The notes under the pieces are model-generated. The model made no database searches, was not told where the DNA came from, and worked only from the letters and a program-made list of their open reading frames with translations. A stretch of 64,000 nucleotides of DNA from a virus. The position numbers and the translations under genes were made by a program. The stretch lies in IMG/VR virus record IMGVR_UViG_3300009285_002342, positions 1 to 64,000 of that record; one strand, 5' to 3'. Below, piece after piece: positions 36,030-64,000 of the stretch (position 1 is its first letter; each line of letters begins with the position of its first letter).

Positions 36030-36034
36030 AAAAA

Positions 36035-36166
36035 TTATCCCTTAGTAGTTCCAATGATCCGTTTGTTTTTAACAATTAAAGACCCGTTAGGACGACTATT
36101 ACAGCCGCTTCTCATAACCGCTAGTTTCGTTAGGGACATAAAATATGAATCCCAATCAATTCTCAT
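36035..36166 (-). pseudogene. Truncated N-terminal copy of dCMP deaminase (43 aa)
   Basis: MRIDWDSYFMSLTKLAVMRSGCNSRPNGSLIVKNKRIIGT, nearly identical to the full gene's N-terminus, then stop. Confidence 0.9.
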
Positions 36167-36310
36167 ATTCTTCCTCTCTTAATATCTCCCCATTCTATTG
36201 AAAAAGTCCAAAACAAAAGATCGATCTCGATAGAATTTCTCCAATTCCAATTTACTGTAACCCCTACAGAAATACATTGCCTATTTGTAAATCTTCTAAT
36301 TCTCATATTT

Positions 36311-37087
36311 TTAATCCTCAATATGAAGTATCGCTTTTAGCGGAAGTATCTGATGATCGTAGCAGTGAAGCCCTTGCGAAGCGAAAGTAATAGGACCGGG
36401 CGAAATTCCTAATTCTTCCGCGATATATTCGTTAAGCAAAGTCATTCCACCTATGTTTTCACCAAATGCACCGTATAAGTCCCAACTCCGGAAGACTACC
36501 CCTAAGATAAGTTGATTGTCTTTTATCTTTAGATCAATACCTTGTAAGCACGGCGTAGTTCTTCGTTCGGTTTCGTTCGTAAAATGAATATCGTAATTGA
36601 AACAAGATTCAGGATTTCCAACTTTAATATAACAATGGTTATTTCCGAATCCTTTTTCCTTGAAGTGCCTAATACACCACTCAAGTTGCGATTCCCAAAA
36701 AATTTCTACGCTAGTTATTGAATAACTAAGCGACGAAGGTTTTCTTATAAATCCTCTTTTTGCCCAATTATCCATATGTCCGTTAATCCATTGAGAATAA
36801 CGGTATTCTTCGTTCCGATTTAAGTTAGGGTCCATCAAATAATTCGCAAAATATTCCGAAATGGCTTCATCCGTAGTTACCGGTGGAACACCTTCCGGAA
36901 AAATAGGCGCTAAAGGACGGACGTGCGGATACTGAATAACCCCGGCAGCGAACATAAATTCTAAACGATTAGATCCGGCATGGCTTCCTGTATCTACCGG
37001 AGTTTTAATTCCGTCACGCCAAAGATTTGACAAAAGTGTAAAATAAGCATCCCCTATCGTCGTCGCTTCTATTAAGCAAGGCCGCAT
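36311..37087 (-). CDS. thyA: Thymidylate synthase
   Basis: PCLQ catalytic Cys; FRSWDLY...EN with the dUMP-specifying Asn; LHCY. Confidence 0.85.
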   Translation of the reverse strand: MRPCLIEATTIGDAYFTLLSNLWRDGIKTPVDTGSHAGSNRLEFMFAAGVIQYPHVRPLAPIFPEGVPPVTTDEAISEYFANYLMDPNLNRNEEYRYSQWINGHMDNWAKRGFIRKPSSLSYSITSVEIFWESQLEWCIRHFKEKGFGNNHCYIKVGNPESCFNYDIHFTNETERRTTPCLQGIDLKIKDNQLILGVVFRSWDLYGAFGENIGGMTLLNEYIAEELGISPGPITFASQGLHCYDHQILPLKAILHIED

Positions 37088-48819: not shown

Positions 48820-49023
48820 TTATAATTTTGGTTCCATAATCCCTTCTTCATGCATTTTTTCGAAAAACTTAAAAAGATTTAACAAAAATTTATCATTATC
48901 GTTAACTTTTATATCCCATTGATTAAACAGAAAATCCAACAAATTTGATTCTGGATTTCCAAATTCACCAGATTCCATATAATCAAAACAACTTCCGTAT
49001 TTTTCTTCATATTTAAAACACAT
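48820..49023 (-). CDS. Hypothetical protein
   Basis: TAATG-coupled to DnaE. Confidence 0.55.
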   Translation of the reverse strand: MCFKYEEKYGSCFDYMESGEFGNPESNLLDFLFNQWDIKVNDNDKFLLNLFKFFEKMHEEGIMEPKL

Positions 49024-52000
49024 TATTTCGCATTCTCCTTAAATATTTTAGCGAAAATCGCTATCCCCGTTCGAAACTTTTCTAAATTCTCATTCCGATT
49101 CCGCAAGACCCAAGAAGGATGCCCGCACCAGACTACGTGAGCATTTACCTTTTCTACAAATTCAACTTCCCCTATTAATTTCGTTATTCCTTTTTCCCTG
49201 CCGGTTAGAGCGTAAAGGGCTACGCCGCCGGTAGCTAAAATCAACTTACAATTCATACTACGGATAAACGGAATTACCCATTTATTGAAACAGATATCGG
49301 TTTCTTCGCGGGAAGGAGTTCGGGTTTTCGACGGAAAGCACATAGCGCAATTAGCAACATGCACCTGTCTTCTCGTTATTCCGTGTATCGCTAATTCATC
49401 CCAAAGTAGATTACCGGAATCTCCTACATAACCGACGCCTTGTTCATTTTCGGTAGAATTGTGAACAAAAATACCGTTAACTGCAAAATTATGATATTTT
49501 TCAACTTCCATATCGTAAACATCTTCAACTCCTATACATTCAACAGCAACAATCTTATGATTATCGTCTATAGGTATTTCTTCATCCGGAAATCTTTTTT
49601 TAAACAATTCCTTTATTCTTTCATCCGTAATATTGAAAAAGGAACTATTTTTTCTTCCCATTAAATAATTCCAATAATAATTAGGATCTGTTTGAAATTT
49701 TTTCTTTAAAGTTTTGGCCATTTTCTTTTTACTTTTAGAAATTTGCTCAAGCCTTTCTGCATATATCTTTGGGTCTTTAAGCACTTGGCTCATTTTGCGA
49801 CTCAGCTTTCTTCTGTAATTTAAAGAAGTCATAATTTTAGAATGTTTTTCTCTATGTTTTTCATTAAACATAGGATTATTCAAGATTATATGATATTTTG
49901 CGTGATCGGCTACAGAAAGTGACTCTAAATTGTCAAAACTATCGTTATATCTATTCTCATCTATATGATGACAATCTTCTTTATCTTCTAATTTTCTCCC
50001 TAATTTTTGTTCTAATAAAAATCGAGATTCTATAAACATTTCAGTATTAAATGCGCCAATATCATTATATCGATAACTATGGCGATGAAAAGGTTGCAAA
50101 CTATGCCCAATAGTTAACCCGTCCTTTATAGACAAATAATCAACAGTTTCTTGTTTTCCTTTAAACGGATCTTTTTTATTAATAGAATATCTTAATAGAA
50201 ATGGATGATTTTCTGTAACGTTTATCGAACTGGTTTTTCTGATTCTTTCTTTTCCATTAGCAAAATACCATTCATAAGTAACTTTATATACTTTTTTCCT
50301 ACCTGTTTTCCAAACCCTATTGACTTTTCCTAAAACTAATTTTTTGTTTTCTGTATCAAGCGAATAAACATAAAAATCTTTTTGCCCAACTAAATCTTTA
50401 ATAGGAATCCCCGTTAAAGATTTGGATTTATCTCTAAACGCTGTATCTATCAAAGAATCCCCGGTAATACACCCCGGTGCCTCCGCAAGGATCAAAGCGT
50501 TATAGTTTCCGATAGACGGAAGTACAACTCTTGTCGCTTGTTTTCTTAAACCGCAAAGTTCACATTCTTTCGCTTCCGGAACTATTCCGATTTTCTTTAT
50601 GACCGGCAATTTTATTGATTTTCGAGAAACAGAAAATTGAAAATACTTGTTCCAATCCTCCGGTCCTGATTCCGGAATCGTATCGAACGCTTTTATTTCT
50701 TCCATTAACTGCTCTATCTTAGTGGTTCCTACGGCTTGCCTTTTAAAGAAACCTTTCGCTAATCTTTTTGGTTTCATTAATGCACATTTAGCGGCGGCAG
50801 TTTCCCCTATTCCTTTGATTTCAGAAAATGGCGCATAAAGATCGTTTCCTTTTATTTTCCATTTCTTCGTATCGGATATTCCTATCTTAGGCGATACAAT
50901 ACGGAAGCCTTTCTTTTCCGCTTCCGATATCGTCGCGTCTTTATCTTCGCCATAGGTTAAAGTAGCGCAAAGAAATTCTTTCGGATGATTACATTTAAGA
51001 TAGGCGGTTTGATATGCTAATAAGCCGTAACTCGTAGCGTGCGCTGCATTAAATCCGTACATAGCCCATCCCAAAAGATCTTGCCAAAACTTTTCGGCCT
51101 GTCTTTCATTTAAAGTTTTTAACTTCTTACAGCCTTCAAAAAAGGAAATTCTATATGGTTCAAATTCTTTCGGATCGCGCTTCTTGCCGATAACCTTTAA
51201 AACATTATAACCATCGGTAGCAGAAAAACCCGCTAAGTCAATCATAGACCGCATCATTTGTTCCTGATAGGCCATTACGCCATAGGTTGATTTTGTAATT
51301 TCTTCGTACTTCGGATGTAGCGGAATCCATTCCTCGCCATGTTTTCGCTTAACATATAAATCGGCCATTCCCGATTCTAACGGCCCGGGCCTAGCTAAAG
51401 CGCCGATAGCTACAATATCGTTAAATTCATCGGGTTTCATTTCTTTACATAATTTTTTACAGGCATAACCAGACATTTGAAATATTCCGGCGGTATCGCC
51501 TTCCGAAAGCATTTTATAAACCTTCGGATCGTCTAACGGAATATTCTCAATATCCAAATTATCTATTATCTTAACCGCTTCGTCTATAACGACTACGGTA
51601 CTTAGTTTTAAAACGTCAATTTTTACCAGTCCCGCGTGTTCATCGCAATCCACCATATCCCAGTTTATTACAATATTATCGCTACGGCGAACTAAATTGC
51701 CCCTCGTCCCGTCCCTTAGATCTTCTCCGGAAATTATCAATCCTGCTGGATGTCTTCCACTCGAACGGCATTGTCCTTCTAATTCGCAAGCTAAACGGAG
51801 TTGATCTGGATATCGTACTGCAAACTTTCGCCCCTCTCTTGTACTCTCTGCTGCCGCTTTTATAAGTCCGGTAGCATGTCCTTTCCCCTCTATGTTTTTA
51901 GCAAATTCGTCTATATCATTTTCATCTAACTCAAAGACACGGCCTACGTCTCTAACAGAAGAACGACTTTTCATCCTCATAAACGTACTAATTCCTACGA

Positions 52001-53276
52001 CATTATATTCCCCATATTCTTCTACAAGATGTTGTTGTATTTTATCGGTTTGAGTATTATCAAAATCAAGATCAATATCCGGAAGTGATTTTCTATCTTC
52101 GGAAATAAAACGCTCAAATAAAAGATTATATTTTATCGGGTCTATCACTCTTGTTATTCCGGCGAGCATCGAAGTAAGTGAACCTGCAACCGATCCTCTT
52201 CCAGGCCCAACAGGTATCTTCGCTTCCTTACAGTATTGAATCAATTCATAGATAATAAGAAAATAACGAGAAAAGTTTTTATGCTGAATAACTTGCATTT
52301 CCCTCTTGTATCTTTCTCTATATCCTTCGGGCCATCTTTTTCCGAAAATCTCTTCGCCGCCTTTTTCGCATATTTCAGCTAAAATATCTTCGGCGGTTAA
52401 ATCCGGATTCGCCTTTTCGTATCGGGTAAGCGGAAGGGAAGGAATCATTTTAGGAACTCTAAAATCCCAACACTTCTCCGCTATTTCTACTGTTTTCGTT
52501 AAGGCTTCGTAATACTGTTTTCGATTTAAGATATTTTGTGCTTTAAATTCAGAGACCATTTCGTCTGCGGTTCTTAGATGTAAACCTTTAAAACCGAATT
52601 TCCACCTATCCGGATCTTTCCATTTCGCTTGTCTTTGCACAGCTAAAAGAACTTCTTGAGCTTCCCATTGATTTTCGTACACGTAATGGCAGTCGTTCGT
52701 CGCTATAAGCGGAATATTGTATTTTTCTGAAAGTTGTAGACAAAGGTTATTTATCTTAACTTGTGAGGCAATTTGATGTGGCATTACCTCTAAGTATATT
52801 TCTGTTTTTTCGATTAGATCTTTAAAAAGTTCTTCGCCATTAGGCAGATTAAGAAACGAAGACGAACATCCCGTAAGTAAAATTAAACCGGAAAGATCGG
52901 CGCTTCTTAGCAAGGGAAAATCTATTCTCGGTCTACGGTTAAAACCTTCTAAGTTCGCTACGGTTAGCATCCGATTAAGTTCTTGCCAGCCTTGTAGATT
53001 TTTTACTAAAACAGTAATATGTCCCCTAGATTCTTTTCCAGTAGACTTCATATCGGGTACACAATATAGCTCAGTCCCGAGAATTGGCTTTATTCCTACT
53101 TTATCGAAAGCTTTCTGCCATTTTATATGTGTATCTATATTGGAATGATCAGTGATAGCACAGGCTTTAAACCCTAATTCTACATTTCTTTTTGCGTATT
53201 GTTCCGGTTTGCCGATCCCGTCAAGGAGGCTGTATTCCCCGTGCACGTGCAAATGTATAAAATCGGAATTATTCAT
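49023..53276 (-). CDS. dnaE: DNA polymerase III alpha fused to a C-terminal family-4 uracil-DNA glycosylase domain, intein-containing
   Basis: PHP HLHVH..YSLLDG, GPGRGS, FERF, PDIDLD, YGFNAAHA; UDG CELCGL, AEAPG, HPS. Confidence 0.93.
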   Translation of the reverse strand: MNNSDFIHLHVHGEYSLLDGIGKPEQYAKRNVELGFKACAITDHSNIDTHIKWQKAFDKVGIKPILGTELYCVPDMKSTGKESRGHITVLVKNLQGWQELNRMLTVANLEGFNRRPRIDFPLLRSADLSGLILLTGCSSSFLNLPNGEELFKDLIEKTEIYLEVMPHQIASQVKINNLCLQLSEKYNIPLIATNDCHYVYENQWEAQEVLLAVQRQAKWKDPDRWKFGFKGLHLRTADEMVSEFKAQNILNRKQYYEALTKTVEIAEKCWDFRVPKMIPSLPLTRYEKANPDLTAEDILAEICEKGGEEIFGKRWPEGYRERYKREMQVIQHKNFSRYFLIIYELIQYCKEAKIPVGPGRGSVAGSLTSMLAGITRVIDPIKYNLLFERFISEDRKSLPDIDLDFDNTQTDKIQQHLVEEYGEYNVVGISTFMRMKSRSSVRDVGRVFELDENDIDEFAKNIEGKGHATGLIKAAAESTREGRKFAVRYPDQLRLACELEGQCRSSGRHPAGLIISGEDLRDGTRGNLVRRSDNIVINWDMVDCDEHAGLVKIDVLKLSTVVVIDEAVKIIDNLDIENIPLDDPKVYKMLSEGDTAGIFQMSGYACKKLCKEMKPDEFNDIVAIGALARPGPLESGMADLYVKRKHGEEWIPLHPKYEEITKSTYGVMAYQEQMMRSMIDLAGFSATDGYNVLKVIGKKRDPKEFEPYRISFFEGCKKLKTLNERQAEKFWQDLLGWAMYGFNAAHATSYGLLAYQTAYLKCNHPKEFLCATLTYGEDKDATISEAEKKGFRIVSPKIGISDTKKWKIKGNDLYAPFSEIKGIGETAAAKCALMKPKRLAKGFFKRQAVGTTKIEQLMEEIKAFDTIPESGPEDWNKYFQFSVSRKSIKLPVIKKIGIVPEAKECELCGLRKQATRVVLPSIGNYNALILAEAPGCITGDSLIDTAFRDKSKSLTGIPIKDLVGQKDFYVYSLDTENKKLVLGKVNRVWKTGRKKVYKVTYEWYFANGKERIRKTSSINVTENHPFLLRYSINKKDPFKGKQETVDYLSIKDGLTIGHSLQPFHRHSYRYNDIGAFNTEMFIESRFLLEQKLGRKLEDKEDCHHIDENRYNDSFDNLESLSVADHAKYHIILNNPMFNEKHREKHSKIMTSLNYRRKLSRKMSQVLKDPKIYAERLEQISKSKKKMAKTLKKKFQTDPNYYWNYLMGRKNSSFFNITDERIKELFKKRFPDEEIPIDDNHKIVAVECIGVEDVYDMEVEKYHNFAVNGIFVHNSTENEQGVGYVGDSGNLLWDELAIHGITRRQVHVANCAMCFPSKTRTPSREETDICFNKWVIPFIRSMNCKLILATGGVALYALTGREKGITKLIGEVEFVEKVNAHVVWCGHPSWVLRNRNENLEKFRTGIAIFAKIFKENAK
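49458..50471 (-). mobile_element. Intein (338 aa) with HNH endonuclease
   Basis: C1 CITGDSLI, block B VTENHPF, HHIDEN..ND..DNL, block F VYDMEV, terminal HN followed by S+1. Confidence 0.92.
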
Positions 53277-54071
53277 TATCGGAAAAATCCTTTGGCTGGT
53301 ATTTTATGATTTTTAATTCTTTCAGAAGCCTTTTTGTACATCTCTTCGTCTTTTTCGATTAGGATATAGTTTCTTTTTGTATTAAGACAAGCAATACCGC
53401 TAGTACCGCTTCCTGCGCAGTTATCAAGAACCAAATCACCTTCAATCGTATATGTTTTAATTAGATATTCAAATAACGGTACTGGTTTTTGGGTAGGGTG
53501 AATGCCTCTTTCCCTAGGATATAATAAAATACTTTCTGGATATTTTGTATCGTATGTTTTTTTTAAAATCTTCTTTTCTACTATTTCCGCTAAATTTAGC
53601 ACTTTCCGAAGAACATTTGTTTGCCCCGTTTTTAATTTTTTTATATCTCGGTATCATTTTTGGAAAATAATTTATGCTCCCAAAACAAAAAACCAAAACA
53701 TCCTCGTGAACTTTCATAGGAGCGTATTTAGCAGTAACAAAATTCCCTGCAAATTTCTTATTCCAAACCCAAGAATGTTTGTAATTGTTAATATTACTCA
53801 TTACTAGCGCTGAAGTAAAAGGTTGAGATGACGTAAGGATTATCGCACCATTATCTTTAATAATTCTCCTATACTGTTTCCATAACGATTCAAAAGGAAT
53901 AATCACATCCCATTTACAGGCGGTAGTGCCGTAAGGTGGATCGCACAAAACCATATCAATACTCTTATCTTCAATATATTTCATCGCTTGAAGACAATCG
54001 GCATTAATAAGGCTGTTTACTGGCAATCGCCCTACGGATATAACCTCTTTAATATTATTAAAAATATTCAT
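53276..54071 (-). pseudogene. N6A/N4C DNA methyltransferase (beta class), frameshifted at an A8 run (53557-53564)
   Basis: N-part has DPPY; C-part has HPTQKP and DNCAGSG; deleting one A joins the frames. Confidence 0.85.
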
Positions 54072-54678
54072 TAATTTTCGCTTTTATCAGTTCCCATTCA
54101 CTTTGATTAATATCTACTTTTGTTCTATTTTCTAACCATGAGACAAATTGTAAATTATCTAATAATAACGCCCCTCCGTTACACTTTGCTTTTATATGAT
54201 CTAAAGACGGTTTAATCCATTTATCTCTCGAAACTCGCCATTTTTCTAAAAGGGTATTAAATTTTTTGTCATTATAAAACTTTTCAATAAACTGCTTATA
54301 TATTTCCGTTGTAAATCCGTTACAATCTCGTTTTCTAGAAAGTGAACGATTAAGATATTTTAATTTTTCAATATCTTCAAAACTATTAAGCCATTCAAGC
54401 GATACATCATATTTTAAATGAGATTTCATATTTTTTAATTTAAAATCCCTTGTCATTTTTTTACCCTTTGACCACGCTTCTCTCCCTTTACAAGCTCTAC
54501 TAATATTGTTTTTATGTTCCTGCGTAAATTCTTTAAGAGTGTTCCTTCTTGTTATTTTAATCCCTTCTTTTTCTAATTTTCTTCTAATTAAATGATGATT
54601 TGTATTAAACTTCTCCGCTATCATCCTTAACGTCCATCTTTCTATTTCGTATAATCGAATTATCTCTTTGGTATTCAT
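54058..54678 (-). CDS. NUMOD3-HNH-type homing endonuclease
   Basis: N-terminal HTH, TQEHKNNISRACKG, PSLDHI..KCNGG...DNLQFVSWLEN..K. Confidence 0.8.
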   Translation of the reverse strand: MNTKEIIRLYEIERWTLRMIAEKFNTNHHLIRRKLEKEGIKITRRNTLKEFTQEHKNNISRACKGREAWSKGKKMTRDFKLKNMKSHLKYDVSLEWLNSFEDIEKLKYLNRSLSRKRDCNGFTTEIYKQFIEKFYNDKKFNTLLEKWRVSRDKWIKPSLDHIKAKCNGGALLLDNLQFVSWLENRTKVDINQSEWELIKAKINEYF

Positions 54679-54720
54679 AATAATTATTCCCCCTATTAAT
54701 ATAATATCCGTACCTTATAA

Positions 54721-54825
54721 CTAAAATAGAAAGTTATATGGCAGATCACAAAGGATCATATCAATAGTCCGGTCAGGAATATTATCCATAAGTTTTAGGC
54801 AATCACCTAACCAAAATTCACTCAA
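54721..54825 (-). pseudogene. Truncated N-terminal copy of the DNA methyltransferase (34 aa)
   Basis: MSEFWLGDCLKLMDNIPDRTIDMILCDLPY-NFLF-stop; TTG start overlaps the upstream TGA. Confidence 0.85.
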
Positions 54826-55355
54826 AATTCATTTCTCCAAATTTCCTGAAATCTACCGATAAACATGTTATTCGCTTCTTTCGAAGGAACTCCGAAATTC
54901 CAACTTAACCTTAATCTTGCTCCGCTAATATTCCAAGGCGCAGGTGGTTTCAGCATTAAAGCGTCCATTTCATTTCCTAAGATAACCGTATCCGCAAATT
55001 TTACTTCTTCGGAAAACGGATAGGTAATACCGAACCGATTAGCAATAACGATATTTAACTTTTCTTCAATCTTAGCGTATCCCTTTAGAAAATGTTTAAT
55101 CGGCTTAGGTACATCCAAAAGATACGCTTCCGAGGCATCGTGCAAAAGTCCTTGTAAAGCATATCTTTCGGGAACGTGAAAGGAGACTAAGACAGAATGC
55201 TCAGCGACCGAATAAAACTTACGGCAATGCCCATTATACCTACACTGATTCGACAAGGACCAAGCGATATCCAAAATATCTATTTCTTCTGAACTAGGAT
55301 CTAAAGGGTAGAATTGCTTGCCTGTATAAGTTTGAATCCAGTCGCCTTTTCTCAT
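54822..55355 (-). CDS. HD-domain 5'-deoxynucleotidase (YfbR/YfdR-like)
   Basis: IQTYTG, DIA.SL...CRYNGH, YSVAEH, LLHDASEAY..D. Confidence 0.9.
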   Translation of the reverse strand: MRKGDWIQTYTGKQFYPLDPSSEEIDILDIAWSLSNQCRYNGHCRKFYSVAEHSVLVSFHVPERYALQGLLHDASEAYLLDVPKPIKHFLKGYAKIEEKLNIVIANRFGITYPFSEEVKFADTVILGNEMDALMLKPPAPWNISGARLRLSWNFGVPSKEANNMFIGRFQEIWRNEF

Positions 55356-55843
55356 TTTCGTCTCTCCAAATACATAGAATGGGTTGAGCGAAATTCGCCG
55401 GATTCTATGCTTTCTTTAACAGATTTTTGAAACTTTCTTATTGCGTCCATATTACTCTCGCAATTAATGGTTAATTTCGGTTCTACAATATTATTCCAAT
55501 AAAGCCACCAAGTTGGAGATATATACCAAGAATACTTATCCGCCTTATATAGCATACGCAAACCACAATATCCAGAATGTGAACAATGAGCGGCTGTAAA
55601 AATATAAGCTTTTCTTCCAAAAAACCGACCTGCTACTTTAGCTCCTAATTCCCAATGCTTTTTCTTTTGTTCATAATCGCTTAAATAATCTTTACCTATA
55701 TGCCCGATATCGTGGAGAAAGATACAGATAATTTGCCAAAATTTAGGCCAACTCCCGTAAAGTTTTCTCCACGATATTAGGACTAGGAAAGAATGGAAAA
55801 CAGAATGGCATCCAATTAGGATACTTACCGTTCCTTCCTTCAC
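55352..55843 (-). CDS. HD-domain protein
   Basis: H..H, LHDIGH, H, ADK. Confidence 0.7.
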   Translation of the reverse strand: MKEGTVSILIGCHSVFHSFLVLISWRKLYGSWPKFWQIICIFLHDIGHIGKDYLSDYEQKKKHWELGAKVAGRFFGRKAYIFTAAHCSHSGYCGLRMLYKADKYSWYISPTWWLYWNNIVEPKLTINCESNMDAIRKFQKSVKESIESGEFRSTHSMYLERRK

Positions 55844-55847
55844 GATC

Positions 55848-56918
55848 TTATCCCCTTCCCCTTTTCTTCGGTTCGGGTTTTACTTCGGTTTCCACGGGTT
55901 CTTCGGTCGTCGGAGCTTCTTCCTCGTCTGCAATAAGACAGACGGCGTGTCTGAAATTGTCCCCTTCGAAAAGCAAAGCACCGTCAGATACCGTCGCTTT
56001 ATTCGCCTTCGGAATAATCGAAGAGAGATGTTCAGGGGAAGCGACAAATTCAATCTTTTTCCCTTTGTACTTTATCGGGACCGGTTCTATAGCTTTTCCT
56101 TTTATGTTTTCGCACTTCGCAATGATTTCCCAGTTATCTACCGTAATCGTTACCCGCTTCAACTTATTCGATTCTTCGGCTAAAACCTGTACCCTGGACA
56201 AGGCTGCACAAAGTTCTACCGGAAAATCAATCTTCTTTCCTTCTACGTTCAGATATTCGTCTACGTCTTCAAAGTTATCGTCTATCAGCGTATGCGCAAA
56301 GATAGCCCCGTCGTGATTTCGGTAGACGGCTTGCGAATCCGTAATCAGAATTTCCTTTAGCCCGAAGGTAGAAAGAAAGTGTGCGATTTTTGAGGGAATA
56401 AGAATCGGTTTTTCTAAATCGATTTCTTCGGAAAGAATCCTTTCGGTAATACGGAAGTTATCGGAAGACAAAATCCTTTTTCCATCTACGGAAAGACATG
56501 TTAAAACGCCCATAGACGCTTGATCACTCGCGGAGAAGGTACAAAAACCTAATGCTTCGTCGAAATCCTCCGGTAACGGTCGCCAATCCTCCTCTTCAAA
56601 ATCGAAAGAAGGTATATCTTTCGCTTCTACCATCTTCAACCATACTTCCGTCTTTCCTGCCTTAACGTGTAACTCCTTTTCGTCCGCGTCAATTTCCATG
56701 TCTTCCTGGCTGAATTTGTTAAGCAATCTCGTAAATTCATCCGCAGGAATCACCGCCTTTAGATCGGTATCCAAAGGTACGCAAATCGTGATTTCTTCGC
56801 CAGCTCCGATAAGTTTATCATTATCGAAGATTAGCATTCCTGAAAGTTCGGAAATTTTACCGTCGCTTAAAGCCGGTTTTACCTTTTCAATCGCACTTAA
56901 AAGTTCTTTTCGTTTCAT
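55848..56918 (-). CDS. dnaN: Sliding clamp (DNA pol III beta-like)
   Basis: RKELLSAIEKV, three-domain size, SSDNFRI, acidic composition; matches DnaE and DnaX in the window. Confidence 0.8.
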   Translation of the reverse strand: MKRKELLSAIEKVKPALSDGKISELSGMLIFDNDKLIGAGEEITICVPLDTDLKAVIPADEFTRLLNKFSQEDMEIDADEKELHVKAGKTEVWLKMVEAKDIPSFDFEEEDWRPLPEDFDEALGFCTFSASDQASMGVLTCLSVDGKRILSSDNFRITERILSEEIDLEKPILIPSKIAHFLSTFGLKEILITDSQAVYRNHDGAIFAHTLIDDNFEDVDEYLNVEGKKIDFPVELCAALSRVQVLAEESNKLKRVTITVDNWEIIAKCENIKGKAIEPVPIKYKGKKIEFVASPEHLSSIIPKANKATVSDGALLFEGDNFRHAVCLIADEEEAPTTEEPVETEVKPEPKKRGRG

Positions 56919-57643
56919 TCTTTCTCCTTCCGTTTAAGTTTTCTCTCCTTTAGTGGTCTTACTGGAATTATTCCGAATCCTAGATTTATTTGTTTTACTT
57001 TAGTCAAATCTTCATATCTCTTAGATTCACCTTTAGGATAATGTAAAATCGGAAATCTAAGATGTTTCCTTGCTTCCTTTGCCCATCTTTTATCGCCATG
57101 AAAATAAATATATCTATGTTTAGGTTTTTGAGGAATTCTTTCTTCTATTTTTCCTTCGTATCTTTCACCGCGAATTTTTCCAGTACAAGATCTTCGATGA
57201 ATTATTTTCCCTTCAGTAGTAAGATATTTCCCTTCGTTAAAAGATCCTTCTCCGGTATAAATCCAATTTAGAGCTTGATAAACATAACCTACATGCCCTT
57301 GATTTTGGTCTGCGTAACTCACAAGGATAAGAGGTTTAGGTAGCAATTTTATTGCATTAGCAGCAAAAAAGGTGGCAAGATTTTTTCTTTCTGAATAATC
57401 AATACAAAGCCGGTTAAATTCTAAAACAGTATCTTTATAATCTTTTCCGCAAACAGAAGCCCCTAAATTCCTATTAGGGCAATATCCAAAAGTCGCTACA
57501 CCTATCGTTCTATTTTTTTCTTTTTCGACCAACGCAAATCCATAAATATTCACTGTAGGCGCTCTACCTGCATAATGCTTTTTTAAAAGCCATTCTTTTG
57601 CTGCCAAACATGGAATCGAAACTATCCGGAATTTATCTTTCAT
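56915..57643 (-). CDS. mom: Mom-family adenine modification enzyme (GNAT fold)
   Basis: KHY, GVATFG, LEFNRLC, VSYAD..QGHVGYVYQA.NW.YTG, KHRYIYF, YPK. Confidence 0.88.
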   Translation of the reverse strand: MKDKFRIVSIPCLAAKEWLLKKHYAGRAPTVNIYGFALVEKEKNRTIGVATFGYCPNRNLGASVCGKDYKDTVLEFNRLCIDYSERKNLATFFAANAIKLLPKPLILVSYADQNQGHVGYVYQALNWIYTGEGSFNEGKYLTTEGKIIHRRSCTGKIRGERYEGKIEERIPQKPKHRYIYFHGDKRWAKEARKHLRFPILHYPKGESKRYEDLTKVKQINLGFGIIPVRPLKERKLKRKEKE

Positions 57644-57654
57644 ATCCTTCCTAC

Positions 57655-57748
57655 GCTTCGTAGAATCGCTTAGGTTAAACGATCTATCGCTAACCCATAA
57701 TACCCTACGGGTAAAATATTTGAACGCCTTAAAAACGATTAAGCGAAG
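57655..57748 (-). repeat. Dispersed TIR element, copy E (inverted)
   Basis: All conserved blocks present in reverse complement. Confidence 0.85.
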
Positions 57749-57773
57749 AATCCGCTTCGTTTCCCTTTTTTCT

Positions 57774-58001
57774 TCAATTCTGACATTTGGTAAGTTTTCC
57801 TTGACAACCTTTAGCACCGCATACATTAGGCAAGACCCAACGAAACTTTTTATTTTTCGCTACCCAAAAACCTTGCTTCGAACCGCATATTTCACATTCA
57901 TACCAAGTAGTCTGTTTCTTCTCTTCTTCAGTTTCTTCGTCCCTACACATTTGCATTTTTAACTCCTTTACATACCCCAATATGCCGGCGAAGTCACGCA
58001 C
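57774..58001 (-). CDS. Small zinc-ribbon protein
   Basis: CEIC and C...C. Confidence 0.55.
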   Translation of the reverse strand: MRDFAGILGYVKELKMQMCRDEETEEEKKQTTWYECEICGSKQGFWVAKNKKFRWVLPNVCGAKGCQGKLTKCQN

Positions 58002-58089
58002 ATATCAGCTATTCCGGAAGGTAGGGATTTTAAGACATCTATATTGTGCCCTAAATATATTTTAGAATCACCGAATTCACGATAAGGTT

Positions 58090-58851
58090 TCATATTTTTG
58101 ATCTTACCTTCCGAATAGCAATAGGATTCATTTTTTTCTTAAACGCACGTAAAGACTCGTTCCCTAAATCCCCACAATCATTTACGTATTTTCCGTTTCC
58201 GTATTCTGCCACTTCCCGATAAAACAGCAACCTCATATATTCAGCTAAGTACGGTTCCGCTAAACAAATTGAATAGCGGAAAATTAGATATTTGAAATTC
58301 TCATCCCAAACATTTAAGCCGACAACTTTCTTCCTCTCCATGTCTATCAGAACTTTTCGATTTTTACCGTTTAGACAAAAATCTAACAATACTTCCGCAT
58401 CTTCAATTTGTCTAAAACGCAAAGTCCATTCCGTTAGAAGATCGATAATCGGCGTTACAGGATGCCCCACTACGGCACGAAGATAAGTTAATTTCGGATT
58501 TCGGGCAACGAACTTCCGACTATTTTTACGAAACACTGCCCACTCCCCTCCTTTCATAGTGAGAAAATCGGCAGGATCGTAAATATACTCATAGTCAAGA
58601 AATTCGTTGCCCAACGGGCATTCCGGAAAGTCAGCCCAAAAAGGAGAGTCTTTCCAAAGTGGATTGCCCATTTTTCGGATAACCGGAAACAGTATTTGTT
58701 TTCCCTTATCTTCAACCCAAACTTCGCTTCCGGTATCGTAAACACGAAATTCGGCCCTATCGAAATATTCCTCCGAGCACCAGCAATTCGGCGTTATTCC
58801 GTTAAGGCGAAGAATTTCTAAATATTCTTTCGGACTAATCAGTTTTTTCAT
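58090..58851 (-). CDS. DUF2156 / PG-lysyltransferase C-terminal-like (aminoacyl-tRNA-dependent GNAT) protein
   Basis: DYEYIYD..DF..MKG..W..FRKN..KF; YVND.GDLG.ESLR.FK..M.P. Confidence 0.7.
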   Translation of the reverse strand: MKKLISPKEYLEILRLNGITPNCWCSEEYFDRAEFRVYDTGSEVWVEDKGKQILFPVIRKMGNPLWKDSPFWADFPECPLGNEFLDYEYIYDPADFLTMKGGEWAVFRKNSRKFVARNPKLTYLRAVVGHPVTPIIDLLTEWTLRFRQIEDAEVLLDFCLNGKNRKVLIDMERKKVVGLNVWDENFKYLIFRYSICLAEPYLAEYMRLLFYREVAEYGNGKYVNDCGDLGNESLRAFKKKMNPIAIRKVRSKI

Positions 58852-59699
58852 TATCTTCGAAGAAACCCCGTTCCTTTTTGCCTTTTAACGGTTTCTTTTC
58901 TTTCTTCGCCTTCTCTGCTATCAGCCGTTGAATCAGCTTCTTCGACACCCCGCCCGATTTCCTCGATTTCCCGCCCATTTTCTTCCTCCTGTATTGATTC
59001 TAAGAAACATCCTTCGTCATACAGACAACCCGCGACAATTCCTTTCATTCCAAACTTATCCCCTTCGATTACTGCAAAATCATTCTTCTTACCGAAGAAA
59101 AACTTTACAGTATTCGAAAATGTAAAAAGGGCTAAAAGATCGGCGGTCCTTAATCCTATCGGCCCGAAGTCTTCTTTTATCGTCTTCCCCCATGATACCC
59201 CGAAACCCTCTTTCACTTGCGTTAATTCTACGGTAGAACCGGAATAGATGTCCCTTTGTAGAAGAAGCGGTTTCCGATTCTTAGCTGAAACCTCAATATG
59301 ACTAAGGCTTTCTTCTAAAAGAGAAAGAACTTCGGTATGCAAATCCAAACGGTTATCGCCTTTTTTCTTATAAAGTTTCCGAAAAGAATCATCTATTTCG
59401 TCAAAAGTCCGCTTAGAAGTAGCACAAGATTTTTTTCTTACGAAACCAGCGGCGTTTTGCGTAAATACAATTTTCCCGTCTATTAACTTAAAATCCGGCG
59501 AATCGTACTGATTAGATTCCATACCGATCTTTTCAGGAAATTCTTCTTTCGAATCAAAATGCAGAATAACTGTATTGTCGAAGTTGGCTATGTAGATAGA
59601 CTTATTTCCTAAGAAGACTTCGTTTCTTAAATGCCCATTTTGAGTTAAGACTACTGCTATAGAAAGTATTTTTTCGGTCATTTGATTAATCATAAACAA
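58851..59699 (-). CDS. Hypothetical protein, possible second clamp-like fold
   Basis: Alternating helix/strand pattern, ~230 aa core plus charged tail. Confidence 0.5.
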   Translation of the reverse strand: MFMINQMTEKILSIAVVLTQNGHLRNEVFLGNKSIYIANFDNTVILHFDSKEEFPEKIGMESNQYDSPDFKLIDGKIVFTQNAAGFVRKKSCATSKRTFDEIDDSFRKLYKKKGDNRLDLHTEVLSLLEESLSHIEVSAKNRKPLLLQRDIYSGSTVELTQVKEGFGVSWGKTIKEDFGPIGLRTADLLALFTFSNTVKFFFGKKNDFAVIEGDKFGMKGIVAGCLYDEGCFLESIQEEENGREIEEIGRGVEEADSTADSREGEERKETVKRQKGTGFLRR

Positions 59700-61099
59700 T
59701 CCTCCAAAATTCTTATTCTAAAATCGTCTTCCTTTTCATATTTCCAGATTATCCTTCCTTCGGAATCATTCCCCACCGGTACTATCCCCCTTCCCCAATC
59801 CAGCGAATAAGAAGGATTTCCGCTAAGGTTCCACAATCCAAAAAATTCCTGCTTAAGATTTTCAGAAAGGAAACCCCCGTTTTCTTCTACATACTTTTCG
59901 TATTCATCCCAAGTTACCGCCCGTCCTTTCTGGTTTTTTATGTACCAGATCGCAGACACAGAACTTCCGCGATTAAATTTTGAATCCGGAAAGAAATCCC
60001 CCACTTCGCAACATATCTCGTTTCCGTTTTCCGCTACATTCCCTAAGTCGAAAGTAGAACAACGGAATCCCTTTTCTCTAAAAAGGTCCATAAACTTTCC
60101 TAGAAGAAGGGAACCAAGGGCTTGACTATCGGAAGTAAGCAGATACATCCGGTTAAAATCATATCCTAAATTCGTAAAGTTATTACGGATACCTGGATTG
60201 TTGGCGGAATAGGAATATGTATCGAAGGTAATGTGTCGAACGCCGGCCGCATAAACTTCTTCAATATATTTTTCGACGAATTCCTTTTCGTCATTTATGA
60301 AAACCATCCACGGCTCTATCCTAGCCACAACCCTTATCCCAGCAGAAGATAAAATGCGCATCGCCTCTAACCGCTTTTTGTAAGAAGGCGCTCCCGGCTC
60401 TATCGCTTTTAAGATCCGGTTGTCTGCGGAAATCAAAGTAACGTGTACTGCAGCTTTAGAAGGATTATCCGCTAAAGCGGAAAGGTAAGGTTCTTCGGCA
60501 GGTAAATCCGATTTAGTATTTATCATTATCGGATAATTTCTGTCTTTTAGATGATTCAAAAACGCTAACGCTATTCCGTTCTTCCTTTCTGCGTAAATAA
60601 AATCTTCGAATCGAATTCCTAACCGAATCGGAATACGGTTTTTTATCGCTCTTTGAATATCGGAAGCATTTAACGGAAGTCCCTTAGCGACAACCTCAAA
60701 ATGCCTATCCAGTTCCGCACGAAAATAATCAGGCGGGCAAGATCGTATTCCCATTTCCTCAGTTCTATCCCAAAAGGAAGTGTACAATGTCGCTTTTAGT
60801 ATATCCGCGAAGCAATATTGGCAACGGAAAGGGCACGCCTTTGCGTCATAGCAATCCGCATTGAGGGGCATCGGGCAAGCGGCTGCCCGAAGACTAACCT
60901 CAATAAAATGTTTAATCCTTTCCGTGTTAAATATCTTCTCTTTGTTTTGCCACTTTTGCCTTATCAGATTAAATTCATGATAATTTGTTTTTCTGCCTTT
61001 AATCTTAACTTCGGATTTCAATTTGTCTTTAACGGAAGTTAGAATCTTCTGTCTGGGAATCAGTTTAGAAACTAAAGATCGCAATTCGTAATAATTCAT
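59690..61099 (-). CDS. Radical SAM protein, spore-photoproduct-lyase-like
   Basis: CPFRCQYC, INTKS, IEPGAPS..KRL, VVARIEP. Confidence 0.88.
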   Translation of the reverse strand: MNYYELRSLVSKLIPRQKILTSVKDKLKSEVKIKGRKTNYHEFNLIRQKWQNKEKIFNTERIKHFIEVSLRAAACPMPLNADCYDAKACPFRCQYCFADILKATLYTSFWDRTEEMGIRSCPPDYFRAELDRHFEVVAKGLPLNASDIQRAIKNRIPIRLGIRFEDFIYAERKNGIALAFLNHLKDRNYPIMINTKSDLPAEEPYLSALADNPSKAAVHVTLISADNRILKAIEPGAPSYKKRLEAMRILSSAGIRVVARIEPWMVFINDEKEFVEKYIEEVYAAGVRHITFDTYSYSANNPGIRNNFTNLGYDFNRMYLLTSDSQALGSLLLGKFMDLFREKGFRCSTFDLGNVAENGNEICCEVGDFFPDSKFNRGSSVSAIWYIKNQKGRAVTWDEYEKYVEENGGFLSENLKQEFFGLWNLSGNPSYSLDWGRGIVPVGNDSEGRIIWKYEKEDDFRIRILEDCL

Positions 61100-62079
61100 A
61101 ATGGATAGTTACTTTCTATTTCGGCAATTTCGTCATCGGCAAGTTCTATTTTTACGGATTTAAGATTGTCTTTTAGATGCTCTAAATTATTTGTAGCTGG
61201 AATTGGAAGGACACCTTTCTTGCTTAAAAGCCAAGATAATGCAATTTGTGGCGATTTGCCTCCCTTTGATTTTGCTATTTTGTCTAAAATTGGTTTGTGT
61301 AATTTCTTATATGATTGCCCCAAAGGGCTATAGGCAATAACCAATATCCCCCTTTCTTGACAATACGGCAATAAAAATTCTTCTATACGCCTATCAATAA
61401 GCGAATAACTGACTTGAACGGAACGTATAACGTCACCAGAAAAATCAGAAAGAAATCTTTGCATTGATTCAATCATATCTACCGAACAATTACTAAGACC
61501 TATAGAAAGAATCTTGCCCTTTTTACGCAATCCAACTAAAGTTTTACCTAAAACCTCGTCCGAATACTTATCGTTAGGAAAGTGAATTTGCAAATGGCTA
61601 ACCCTTCCTAACTTTTCTAAAGATCTTGAAACGGTAGAAGTAAGTGCAGAAGATGACATATGATCCCTTCGAACTTTTGTAGCTACGGGAATTGAAATGT
61701 TTTTTAGTGCTTTCCCCAATTCTGTTTCTACCTTACCGTATCCGTATCCTTCTGCGGTATCTATCAATACAGCGCCGAAATTTACCGCTTCTTCTATAAG
61801 ACTATAATCATATTTCCAACCATATGTCCCGAAACCAATACCGCATTTACATTCGATTTCCATTGGTTTAAAAGAAATATCCTGGTGGTCTAAAAGTTTT
61901 TCTAAACGCCTAACCGAATATTGAAGTAATTCTTTTCTTTTAATCAAAAGCGCAGAAGATAAAGACATATAGCGTAGATTAAGTCCCCACATCGATCCGT
62001 GCAAAACATCTGAAGCCCCTGCGCTTAATTTCTTATCAAAAGAAAAGTTTTTTATTTCGTCAAGTATTTTTAACCACAC
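61096..62079 (-). CDS. Aldo/keto reductase
   Basis: GFGTY, IDTAEGYG, ATK, QIHFP, IGLSN, IAYSPLG, QIALSW, PIP. Confidence 0.93.
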   Translation of the reverse strand: MWLKILDEIKNFSFDKKLSAGASDVLHGSMWGLNLRYMSLSSALLIKRKELLQYSVRRLEKLLDHQDISFKPMEIECKCGIGFGTYGWKYDYSLIEEAVNFGAVLIDTAEGYGYGKVETELGKALKNISIPVATKVRRDHMSSSALTSTVSRSLEKLGRVSHLQIHFPNDKYSDEVLGKTLVGLRKKGKILSIGLSNCSVDMIESMQRFLSDFSGDVIRSVQVSYSLIDRRIEEFLLPYCQERGILVIAYSPLGQSYKKLHKPILDKIAKSKGGKSPQIALSWLLSKKGVLPIPATNNLEHLKDNLKSVKIELADDEIAEIESNYPL

Positions 62080-62789
62080 AATCCAAAACCTTTCAATTTT
62101 GCTTTCTTTGGTTTGAATTCTTCATGCCCCCTAGAAACAAACAAATCGGAAGGTTGAATATGCGTAATCTTTCCTTTTTCATTTCCATACAAAACCATAG
62201 CGGCATTCATAAAAGCGGAAACAGCTATGAGATTTTTCCCAACAATCGGTTTTGTTTCCTTAGCCAACAATTCGTAGTATTCCTCTTCGGTTTTAACGCC
62301 ATAATGACGGAGATTCCCGAACTTAAAACCAAAACAAGTGCTATCGGCTATTATAACCCATTTTGCTGTTTTCGCTACTCTTGACAATACTTCGCTATGT
62401 CCAGGCAACTTACGCAAAGTAAAGGCGTCAAAATCCAAAATTAGAATGTCCGATTCCGGCGGCGTCCAAGAATAAACATCGTTATTCAATACAGTGTGGT
62501 TTGGAAAATTACTTTTCAAAAAACCACAACAATTTTCGTCCTTATCGTTAATAATCAATTCACAATCAGTCCATCTTGTTAACGAAACAGCGCACCAAAA
62601 ACCAGATCTAGCTATAGCGTCTACGATTTTTGGTTTCTTTCCACAATTTATTACAGACAAAACTGCATCAAGCGTTCTACAAGTTTCCGCTACATCACGG
62701 TACGGAACAACTTGGCTAGGTGTCCTTATCTTTCTTTCTGTCCCTGATTCGGGAATGTCAAGTTTTATTTTTCCTACGGAATAAATCAT
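62070..62789 (-). CDS. Rossmann-fold methyltransferase-like protein
   Basis: IVDAIARSG, INDKD, NNDVY, DILILDF (degenerate). Confidence 0.5.
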   Translation of the reverse strand: MIYSVGKIKLDIPESGTERKIRTPSQVVPYRDVAETCRTLDAVLSVINCGKKPKIVDAIARSGFWCAVSLTRWTDCELIINDKDENCCGFLKSNFPNHTVLNNDVYSWTPPESDILILDFDAFTLRKLPGHSEVLSRVAKTAKWVIIADSTCFGFKFGNLRHYGVKTEEEYYELLAKETKPIVGKNLIAVSAFMNAAMVLYGNEKGKITHIQPSDLFVSRGHEEFKPKKAKLKGFGLCG

Positions 62790-63856
62790 AGCCCACTATC
62801 CTTCATTGTGTAATGATTTTTTGATTTACCGCACATAATCAATTCTGCGTTTTTTAAATCTTCTTTTGTCCCAATTCCTTCCCAGGTAGTTTCTAAAATA
62901 GTTTTTCTATCTAAACCTTCTTGCAGCAATTTTCTCCAATTGTGAGTGTTAAATTTGAAAGCATTTTTTATGTCTATTCCGCAACAAGTGTTAAGATTAG
63001 ATACCCAATTTTTCGGAAGGTTGACAAAATCCGGACATCCAAGATTTATATTTTCCTTGTCTGCAATTTCGCACAATTCCTTCTGAACAGGTTTCCATTT
63101 TTTATCCTGATTAGCGTCCCATATTTTTTCAATATCTAAACCTATATCCAAAAGACGTTTTGCAGTATAAGGATTCAAATGTAAATTGTAGATATTGTAA
63201 GACATAAAACCATAAGACTTGATAAGTTTAAGAATATCTTTAAATTGCGAAACAGTATGATACCCAGGAATAAAAGGTTCCCCCCTTATTCCAACATTTA
63301 ACCCCAATCTCAACCATTCTTTTCCTATCATTAAACGATCTTTAATCGGAGAGGTTCTTTTCCTTTCGAATATTTCCCAATCAGATTCACAGCCAGCAGT
63401 TATTTCGATTAAAAAACAGAAGCAATCTTTTTTTGTCTTAACAAATAAACCCGTATCCCTTAAAGCATTAGAAATGTATCTTGAACAAATTACGAAAGGC
63501 CAAGATAAATCTATCAGAACCTTAACGCTGTTTCTAGTTACTTTGTGCTGATTTTCTATCGATTGATAAGGATCAGCTTTCCTTCCTAAAAATATTGCCT
63601 TTTTCTTTTTTAACGCAATAGCTAAGGGAGATTTTGGATCTTTTGATCTTTGAGAATCTGTTAATTTTTTACAGATTTGTTCTGGATTTGCTATCCGTTG
63701 TTCTTCGCCCCAAATCTTGTTAAGGTTTCTGCCTAAGCAGTGAAAACAATCTGCTTCACAAGCCCAATAAGATTCAAGAGTCAACGGAAGTGGACAATTT
63801 AGATGGGTTTTTCTAATACAGAAAGGATTTTTATATTCTTTCAAGTTATTCACCAA
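62786..63856 (-). CDS. Radical SAM protein, spore-photoproduct-lyase-like
   Basis: CEADCFHC, ADPYQ.IE, RGEPFIPG. Confidence 0.88.
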   Translation of the reverse strand: MVNNLKEYKNPFCIRKTHLNCPLPLTLESYWACEADCFHCLGRNLNKIWGEEQRIANPEQICKKLTDSQRSKDPKSPLAIALKKKKAIFLGRKADPYQSIENQHKVTRNSVKVLIDLSWPFVICSRYISNALRDTGLFVKTKKDCFCFLIEITAGCESDWEIFERKRTSPIKDRLMIGKEWLRLGLNVGIRGEPFIPGYHTVSQFKDILKLIKSYGFMSYNIYNLHLNPYTAKRLLDIGLDIEKIWDANQDKKWKPVQKELCEIADKENINLGCPDFVNLPKNWVSNLNTCCGIDIKNAFKFNTHNWRKLLQEGLDRKTILETTWEGIGTKEDLKNAELIMCGKSKNHYTMKDSGL

Positions 63857-63861
63857 GAATT

Positions 63862-63896
63862 AATTAGGGACTCGGTGAATTTTCCGAGTCCCTAAT
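63862..63896. terminator. Strong intergenic hairpin
   Basis: AATTAGGGACTCGG...CCGAGTCCCTAATT 14 bp stem. Confidence 0.6.
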
Positions 63897-64000
63897 TTCA
63901 GAAGGGATTTGTTAGACAGGGGCTACAGTCTTGGGATCAATCTTGGATACCTTACCGAATCCTATTGCACAAGGCATCATTACATCGACAAGATGTTTCG

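Follow-up and report, generated by a model that had tools for sequence, protein, structure and literature searches.

A conserved phage gene module, probably for DNA hypermodification, and its variant in the replication region of an uncultured phage

The first 64 kb of a 115,125-bp phage record of IMG/VR (IMGVR_UViG_3300009285_002342, estimated completeness 84%), hereafter the window, include among their replication genes a stretch (58090-63856) that we regard, on balance, as probably a variant of a conserved phage module for post-replicative hypermodification of DNA bases. The core of this module lies between DnaB and the beta clamp and consists of two radical S-adenosylmethionine (SAM) enzymes (rSAM_A and rSAM_B), a PCNA-like protein, a 47-aa peptide, and a transferase (GNAT253); the nearby genes encoding a Mom-family enzyme, the clamp, and two HD hydrolases are separate. 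The module is widespread, and we found no description of this gene combination in the literature. Only the pair that accompanies the core in this phage, a methyltransferase-fold protein (Ross239) and an aldo-keto reductase (AKR), is a rarer variant. What we infer from these genes and their relatives is the substrate (probably thymine), the chemistry, an aminoacyl-tRNA donor, a role for the peptide, and docking on the clamp.

A preliminary description, made from the letters of the window, had listed ten co-oriented proteins in this region as a candidate multi-step system of DNA base modification, in a combination that it did not recognise. All ten are present, on the minus strand. The list is right as far as it goes, but it missed the peptide gene (58835-58978) and left as unknown a protein with a predicted PCNA fold. 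Likewise, the combination has escaped the literature that we searched, but it is not peculiar to this phage. The core and accessory genes of the module are the following:

62786-63856, minus strand: rSAM_A, 356 aa, radical SAM protein of COG1533 ("DNA repair photolyase") type; core gene
62070-62789, minus strand: Ross239, 239 aa, methyltransferase-fold protein with C-terminal KGFGLCG; accessory finishing gene
61096-62079, minus strand: AKR, 327 aa, Pfam Aldo_ket_red; accessory finishing gene
59690-61099, minus strand: rSAM_B, 469 aa, Pfam Radical_SAM, paralogue of rSAM_A; core gene
58851-59699, minus strand: PCNA-like protein, 282 aa, predicted two-domain clamp fold; module-specific core gene
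58835-58978, minus strand: 47-aa peptide gene, recognised by a family hidden Markov model (HMM) and a ribosome-binding site; core gene
58090-58851, minus strand: GNAT253, 253 aa, transferase with a predicted tandem-GNAT DUF2156/FemX fold; core gene

Conservation of the module and of its setting

A scan of IMG/VR returned at least 174 contigs with the module; 80 loci were fetched and studied, and the window proteins were compared with them by tblastn. Gene order is fixed in these loci: DnaB, f11 (p224), rSAM_A, a variable slot, rSAM_B, the PCNA-like gene, the peptide gene, GNAT253, the clamp, the polymerase, and the clamp loader. Among the core genes, the PCNA-like protein matched in 77 loci, rSAM_A in 72, and GNAT253 in 67, and peptide homologues occur in 72/80; the replisome genes matched in 63 (DnaB), 58 (clamp), and 57 (clamp loader). 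The core genes keep their order though their identity is just 35-50%. The accessory genes were found in 14 (Ross239) and 10 (AKR) loci. These results do not sustain the view that the ten listed genes form one pathway. HD177 matched in two loci and HD163, Mom, and a 75-aa open reading frame (ORF) in none; Mom was also absent from five whole related records in a search that was positive in this genome, and the beta clamp occurs in sister phages with and without the module. The conservation of the gene neighbourhood, which the preliminary description had proposed as a check, thus holds for the five-gene core, kept in order, whereas Mom and the HD genes do not co-occur with it in relatives.

The sister set comprises 80 loci seeded with the clamp loader, many of which share the replisome layout without the module (the beta-clamp alignment was too divergent for seeding a scan, and a single clamp-loader protein retrieved four loci). 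In these phages the arrangement DnaB-f11...clamp-PolA-loader is kept, the module is absent, and the stretch from f11 to the clamp contains a C5 cytosine methylase, N6/N4 methylases, other radical SAM genes, and GT1-like genes. Because module-less sisters hold methylases, radical SAM genes, and GT1-like genes there, the stretch is a DNA-modification hot spot of the lineage. We considered p224/f11 itself as a module member and rejected it: it adjoins DnaB in module-less sisters too, as a replisome gene, and a PDB profile search with it returned nothing significant. Among individual sister slots, one holds a radical SAM gene of SPASM type whose tail reads QGFGLQI (L178:3018-4076), another a radical SAM gene beside a GT1-like gene (L128:1732-3126), and a third a C5 cytosine methylase (L112:2529-3611). 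The polymerase of the module loci is mostly of family A (PolA), often in two ORFs, and stands with a beta-type clamp and clamp loader; about 15 of the 80 loci have DnaE, as does this phage.

The relatives are known mostly from metagenomes. Megablast of the region against GenBank phages gave zero matches, tblastn of rSAM_B against the same phages gave a single weak partial match, and a cultured relative was not found. The 518 homologues of rSAM_B at 50-60% identity are nearly all unnamed and metagenomic, with none in cultured phages. Searches of GTDB genomes matched just six contigs of metagenome-assembled genomes, from mixed phyla; they are probably mis-binned phage and give no clue to the host.

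Components of the module and the pathway of phage M6

The two radical SAM proteins are full-length paralogues (hhalign 99.8%, E 1e-27, 342 columns) that share a C-terminal C...CC triad, and both are members of the radical SAM superfamily. rSAM_B contains CPFRCQYC and scores 34.2 bits against Pfam Radical_SAM (PF04055, cut-off 29.5); rSAM_A has the CX3CX2C motif CEADCFHC, with no Pfam match, and matches the NCBIfam PA0069 radical SAM family (E 9e-12). They had been described as similar to spore photoproduct lyase (SPL). The motifs, the Pfam match of rSAM_B, and the paralogy agree with this as far as the superfamily goes, but the best scores against COG1533-type families (PA0069, Rv2578c; 44.6-51.3 bits) are far below the curated cut-offs (360-430), and the two proteins appear to be distant relatives only of the SPL/COG1533 families. 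PDB profile searches with both sequences gave nothing significant and no SPL chain (4fhc/4fhe). They resemble SplB and the COG1533 proteins in the CX3CX2C core, the weak PA0069 and Rv2578c matches, and a presumed DNA substrate; they differ in their distance from the family cut-offs, in an extra C-terminal domain that carries the C...CC triad, and in sitting within a biosynthetic-looking gene set. By Pfam, a SPASM domain or a recognition domain for peptides that are made ribosomally and then post-translationally modified (RiPPs) is found in neither.

The variable slot ties the relatives to a proven pathway of DNA modification. Phage M6 produces 5-(2-aminoethyl)-deoxyuridine (5-NedU) with a dUMP hydroxymethylase (gp58), a 5-hydroxymethyldeoxyuridine (5-hmdU) DNA kinase (gp54), an amino acid:DNA transferase (gp51), a radical SAM isomerase (gp53), and a pyridoxal phosphate (PLP) decarboxylase (gp52) (PMC8989533). 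The DNA-acting roles of the last two were defined experimentally: gp53, which is SPL-like, carries out an N-to-C shift on DNA that yields C-alpha-glycinylthymidine, and gp52 decarboxylates this DNA-bound substrate to 5-(2-aminoethyl)-dU (PMC8989533). The commonest gene of the variable slot, present in 47/80 loci, encodes a 278-aa fold-II PLP enzyme (PALP) that is 47% identical to gp52 over its full length (E 7e-84; 40-47% across the 47 loci). The family profile of rSAM_A also aligns with gp53 (hhalign 97.6%, E 4e-12, 177 columns), and that of rSAM_B does so more weakly (hhalign 77%); for rSAM_A this indicates homology, not orthology.

The gp52-type decarboxylase was not found in this genome, where Ross239 and the AKR occupy the slot instead. 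The AKR and PALP never occur together (PALP in 0/10 AKR loci versus 47/70 others, Fisher p 5.6e-5), as expected for alternative finishing steps, and the Ross239-AKR pair is a rarer variant of the finishing slot. The AKR is a clear family member (PF00248, 146.6 bits, E 1e-42), with the D-Y-K-H catalytic tetrad and the motifs IDTAEGYG, ATK, and IHFP readable in the translation. Ross239 had been called a methyltransferase-like Rossmann protein, and the nearest neighbours of its Atlas model are indeed small N6-adenine/MTS methyltransferases, at template modelling (TM) scores of 0.63-0.68; its best sequence match to methyltransferases is only E 0.06. Its motif I is degenerate (ARSG) here and GxG in other members of the family, and the family has DF[ND]xF where amino-methyltransferases have motif IV, (D/N)PP(Y/F).

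The entry enzymes of the M6 pathway were sought in this genome and four relatives, two of them 100% complete. Neither the amino acid:DNA transferase ADDT (PF18724) nor the 5-hmdU DNA kinase HMUDK (PF18748) was present, and the same searches were positive in M6 (E 2e-48 and E 1e-19). With both absent, the radical enzymes probably replace the hydroxymethyl and kinase entry steps. This genome does contain a divergent ThyA-family gene at 36311-37087 (258 aa, 25.7 bits), for which the match to the C-terminal half only does not distinguish a synthase from a hydroxymethylase. A ThyA-family match was found in just one of five related records, which is not among the three with a completeness of 94% or more, so phage-made 5-hmdU is not a general requirement. 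The gene is grouped on the minus strand (34963-37087) with an HNH endonuclease and a dCMP deaminase, about 20 kb from the module. Two other connections were tried and rejected: GNAT253 as a relative of M6 gp51 (hhalign probability 0.4%), and a 7-deazaguanine route (TGT/DpdA not found).

The module thus resembles the M6 pathway in having an SPL-like radical SAM enzyme, of a kind that acts on DNA in M6, in the homology of rSAM_A to gp53, in the gp52 orthologue that 47/80 relatives keep within it, in swappable finishing enzymes, and in its setting among replication genes. It differs in that this genome is without ADDT, HMUDK, and gp52, in two radical SAM paralogues versus one in M6, in a finishing pair made of the AKR and a methyltransferase-fold protein, and in the addition of a DUF2156-fold transferase, a PCNA-like clamp, and a peptide, none of which belongs to the M6 pathway as described (PMC8989533).

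The transferase had been likened to DUF2156 proteins, and this holds at the level of the predicted fold. The AlphaFold2 model of GNAT253 has a predicted local distance difference test score (pLDDT) of 95.8 and matches 2hqy by Foldseek (TM 0.72, E 3e-11), followed by the C-terminal domains of aaPGS (L-PGS)/MprF, by Sba18/Sbb17, and by FemX (TM 0.54-0.66); the family profile also matches 2hqy (E 2e-4). On this model, GNAT253 has a tandem-GNAT DUF2156/FemX fold. It shares this fold with aaPGS/MprF, FemX, and Sba18/Sbb17 and differs from them in being soluble, in its length of just 253 aa, and in its acceptor, for which a DNA-linked amine and the 47-aa peptide are candidates. A search for longer or fused forms of GNAT253 was negative.

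The 282-aa protein listed as unknown is modelled as a two-domain PCNA fold. Its AlphaFold2 model, built from an alignment of 45 sequences, has a pLDDT of 84.6, above 90 over residues 1-160. Foldseek matched it to many PCNAs with a probability of 1.0, and VIA-align gave a Z of 15.5 to yeast PCNA (root mean square deviation 4.2 Å, 210 of ~230 residues) and of 14.8 to 9-1-1 subunits; a PDB profile search by sequence returned nothing significant. A census found one copy of the gene in each of four genomes with the module and none in ten sister genomes, eight of which are at least 90% complete. Since it is found only with the module, the PCNA-like gene is a part of it and not a general replication factor. 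The family forms 219 clusters at 50% identity among 1.84 billion representatives. Two homologues (P0209 and P0232) have an N-terminal DUF3102, the only domain carried by fused forms.

The peptide family was revealed by clustering the ORFs of the loci and lies between the PCNA-like gene and GNAT253. The member in the window matches the family HMM (E 1.7e-11), has AGGAGG directly 5' of its ATG, and overlaps the end of the PCNA-like ORF in a different frame. The N-terminal 20 residues (MGGKSRK.G.VSK.LI.R.) are near-invariant and are followed by a Lys-rich linker of variable length and a C-terminal hydrophobic motif (GFF, GLGL, PLF, GLL), present in 47/58 unique peptides versus 5.7±2.2 in shuffles. 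In the window, the peptide has RGFF near its C-terminus, and the same bases encode the end of the PCNA-like protein, KGTGFLRR, which may be a by-product of the frame overlap. The basic tails of PCNA-like homologues (GRKKQK...) also appear, from the codons read by hand, to be an out-of-frame reading of the conserved start of the peptide.

Neighbouring genes and the shared tail peptide

Downstream of the module, the window continues on the same strand with these features:

57774-58001, minus strand: 75-aa Cys-rich ORF, 0/80 loci by tblastn, no Pfam match
57628-57757, minus strand: copy of a dispersed repeat (~100 bp) with a terminator-like hairpin, promoter-like hexamers, and a ribosome-binding site, between the module and Mom
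56915-57646, minus strand: Mom-family DNA modification enzyme, Pfam Mom (PF25680)
55848-56918, minus strand: beta-type replicative sliding clamp (phrog_947 E 2e-30, TIGR00663 E 1e-17)
55352-55843, minus strand: HD163 hydrolase, weak HD match (E 1e-3)
54822-55355, minus strand: HD177 hydrolase, dNMP phosphatase phrog_318 (E 7e-66)
53276-54071, minus strand: beta-class N6/N4 DNA methyltransferase, frameshifted into two ORFs, ending AKGFFR
50742-50756, minus strand: internal KGFFK motif of DnaE (residues 841-845), GFF position kept among homologues

The ten genes had been described as tightly coupled. This is accurate within two blocks, from rSAM_A to GNAT253 and from Mom to HD177, but not between them, where an 88-nt gap, the 75-aa ORF (probably outside the module), and 127 nt with the terminator-like hairpin and the promoter-like repeat intervene. 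The identifications of Mom (114.6 bits against a Pfam cut-off of 27.1; 115.6 bits in a genome-wide search), of the AKR, of the sliding clamp, and of the two HD hydrolases are all borne out, that of HD163 weakly. Mom starts at the ATG at 57646, not at 57826, and has a 38-aa C-terminal extension past the Pfam domain that contains LGFGI. The repeat 5' of it ends at this start and has at least ten copies in the 115-kb record, in both orientations; its RNA fold is no better than that of shuffles (z -1.4). On sequence and synteny, Mom appears to be a separate, lineage-specific insertion that came in between GNAT253 and the clamp together with a promoter-like repeat of its own. Like Mom of phage Mu, which makes N6-carbamoylmethyl-adenine, it is above the Pfam family cut-off; it differs in its extension and is unlinked to the radical SAM module in all relatives examined. 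HD163 and HD177 are local additions, not module members, and the beta clamp is an ordinary replisome clamp.

The preliminary description had also noted that four proteins end in a similar peptide, possibly for docking on the clamp or replisome. Of these, KLKGFGLCG is the true C-terminus of Ross239. NLGFGI lies 19 residues before the end of Mom, in the extension past its domain; AKGFFR ends the C-terminal half of the frameshifted methyltransferase (53276-53602), outside the region listed; and KGTGFLRR overlaps the peptide gene. Within this genome, [KR]G[FLT]G?[FL], a motif chosen post hoc, falls no more than six residues from the C-terminus in four of its 14 occurrences (binomial p 0.007), the carriers being Ross239, the PCNA-like protein, the C-terminal half of the methyltransferase, and a 50-aa ORF. 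The last, in the primase region (genome 72724-72876, minus strand), ends EKGFGLLRRK.

This weak signal becomes strong across relatives. In the 80 loci, G[LF]..[LFIWY] occurs in the last nine residues of ~18/70 rSAM_A, 5/15 Ross239, and 5/18 methyltransferases (28/103 together) versus 23/1001 other ORFs (odds ratio 15.9, p 1e-17); no DnaB, clamp, clamp loader, or GNAT253 protein has it. By eye, ~11/14 Ross239 homologues have a hydrophobic tail. Ten further carriers were checked, and DNA methyltransferases (of the N6_N4 and D12 classes) or a PAPS-reductase-like protein account for six of them. DnaE carries an internal AKGFFKR, with GFF at the equal alignment position in 5/6 DnaE homologues. Comparable arrangements are known for clamps: the bacterial clamp-binding motif QL[SD]LF occurs in Pol III alpha, Pol IV, MutS, and Hda, in E. 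coli Pol III alpha the clamp-binding motif is internal, and T4 gp43, gp55, and gp33 bind gp45 through their C-terminal tails. The peptides described here are alike in being short, hydrophobic, and C-terminal on unrelated DNA enzymes, with an internal copy in the polymerase. They differ in having the form [KR]G[FL](G)[FLIW], with no leading Gln, and in occurring mostly on methyltransferases, a radical SAM enzyme, and Mom; their binding is predicted.

We considered the PCNA-like protein as the receptor of the tails and rejected it, as methylases and slot genes are also tailed in sisters with no PCNA-like gene anywhere in their whole genomes. Because the tails occur without this gene, the shared beta clamp seems the likelier receptor. 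rSAM_B and GNAT253 are never tailed, and the peptide could be a clamp adaptor for these two, or an aminoacyl carrier.

A homologue of the split methyltransferase aligns in two frames, and the switch between them falls near 53560-53575, at an A8 run; the frameshift there might reflect a sequencing error, a pseudogene, or phase variation. The DnaE ORF (49023-53276, minus strand, 1417 aa) has an HNH-bearing intein-like insert at ~aa 1060-1290, ending ...GIFVHN|S, and its C-terminal domain past this insert resembles a family-4 uracil-DNA glycosylase. Downstream of the region lie, in all, an HNH gene, the split methyltransferase, DnaE, and the clamp loader. Upstream, beyond the window, are p224 (f11), a split PAPS-reductase-like gene, and DnaB; the PAPS-reductase-like gene (genome 64735-65540, L009:2735-3540, minus strand) is broken into ORFs of 92 and 186 aa, and in another phage its homologue has the tail KKGLIY. 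A perfect hairpin with a 14-bp stem (63862-63897, minus strand) separates p224/f11 from the start of rSAM_A and is not followed by a T-run. An Rfam scan of 53000-64000 found no RNA families.

Proposed mechanism and its alternatives

The idea of multi-step DNA base modification in a replisome operon is supported by the gp52 orthologue in the slot of relatives, the homology to gp53, the methylases of the sister slot, and the tail common to DNA methyltransferases. We propose that the two paralogous SPL/COG1533-type radical SAM enzymes would act on DNA, with the C5-methyl of thymine as the likely target, and that the DUF2156/FemX-fold transferase would supply an amino acid, probably from aminoacyl-tRNA. 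The module-specific PCNA-like ring and the 47-aa peptide would keep the enzymes that have no tail in place on DNA or the clamp, and the DNA-acting enzymes of the lineage, with their [KR]G[FL](G)[FLIW] peptide (mostly C-terminal, internal in DnaE), would most likely dock on the beta clamp. The appended group would be finished by the M6 gp52-type PLP decarboxylase in most relatives and, here, by the NAD(P)H-dependent AKR and the methyltransferase-fold protein. With this finishing pair, the end product is expected to differ from that of most relatives; instead of an aminoethyl group it might carry, for example, a side chain that is reduced, methylated, or both. Mom would be an independent second DNA modifier, and the HD genes would encode nucleotide-pool enzymes. 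In its most specific form, which we put forward only tentatively, SPL-type radical SAM enzymes, kept at the replication fork by the PCNA-like ring and by the peptide as adaptor or carrier, would functionalise the C5-methyl of ordinary thymine directly and attach a tRNA-delivered amino acid by way of the FemX-fold transferase.

Several observations weigh against hypermodification. The phage is uncultured, and the module is known here from its genes, with no modified base observed. PALP, the sole gene that ties the relatives to a proven DNA pathway, is absent from this genome, and rSAM_A is only ~18% identical to gp53, over the radical SAM core only. With the record 84% complete, an absent entry enzyme could sit in the unseen part. 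GNAT253 scores 18.6 bits against PF09924 (LPG_synthase_C), below the cut-off of 27.5; it is its modelled fold alone that suggests the use of aminoacyl-tRNA, and the one tRNA gene in the window (Ile) is distant from the module. The tail motif is a post hoc definition and is unlike the canonical clamp-binding motif QL[SD]LF. Finally, an invariant small peptide beside radical SAM enzymes also fits RiPP-like chemistry.

This last point leads to the main rival, in which the module tailors the 47-aa peptide, not DNA: the transferase would aminoacylate it, as in RiPP-like or peptide aminoacyl-tRNA ligase (PEARL)-like systems, the radical SAM enzymes would modify it, and the finished product would exert its effect at the clamp; it might, for instance, be a regulator or block the host replisome. 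The near-invariant 20 N-terminal residues in 72 loci, with a variable remainder, are reminiscent of an enzyme recognition sequence, the peptide gene sits between the PCNA-like gene and the transferase, and FemX and Sba18-type enzymes acylate amines of peptides and small molecules. We nevertheless consider this explanation unlikely. The radical SAM enzymes are without SPASM and RiPP-recognition domains by Pfam, and their nearest characterised relative, gp53, acts on DNA. The M6 counterpart of the slot's gp52 orthologue works on a DNA-linked amino acid, the sister slot holds DNA methylases, and rSAM_A and Ross239 share their tails with DNA methyltransferases.

Repair and a chance neighbourhood are less likely still. 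The radical SAM pair might be clamp-tethered DNA repair lyases that remove lesions at replication, as does spore photoproduct lyase, a reading for which the likeness to COG1533-type families, the replisome-operon setting, and the clamp-type tails can be cited, together with the name "DNA repair photolyase" that homologues bear in the sources. That name, however, is an automatic annotation, neither enzyme reaches an SPL/COG1533 cut-off or finds an SPL chain in the PDB, and repair would leave unexplained the obligatory transferase, the peptide, the extra clamp, and the swappable PLP and AKR/methyltransferase genes; we judge it quite improbable. A gathering of unrelated neighbours in a gene-dense replication region, some acting on nucleotides, tRNA, or metabolites and with tails alike by chance, would suit Mom, the HD genes, and the 75-aa ORF, which are indeed unlinked, and the weak tail statistic within this genome, but is very hard to credit for five genes in constant order in 67-77 of 80 loci at such divergence, a PCNA-like gene found only alongside them, and the tail enrichment across families.

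Hypermodified DNA lets phages escape restriction and CRISPR systems, and hypermodification has been a source of DNA-labelling enzymes. The thymidine pathways that we found in the literature all begin with 5-hmdU together with a DNA kinase and an amino-acid:DNA transferase, and the module keeps known finishers without these starters. Its two radical enzymes, tRNA-type transferase, own clamp, and tiny peptide point to a different start of DNA modification, probably an anaerobic one. If the most specific form of our proposal is true, this would be an entry to DNA hypermodification free of hydroxymethyl, kinase, and oxygen, and the first case of DNA being modified with the help of charged tRNA. 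The docking peptide found across the lineage, on methyltransferases, Mom, and a radical SAM enzyme, suggests in turn that these phages couple DNA modification physically to the sliding clamp.

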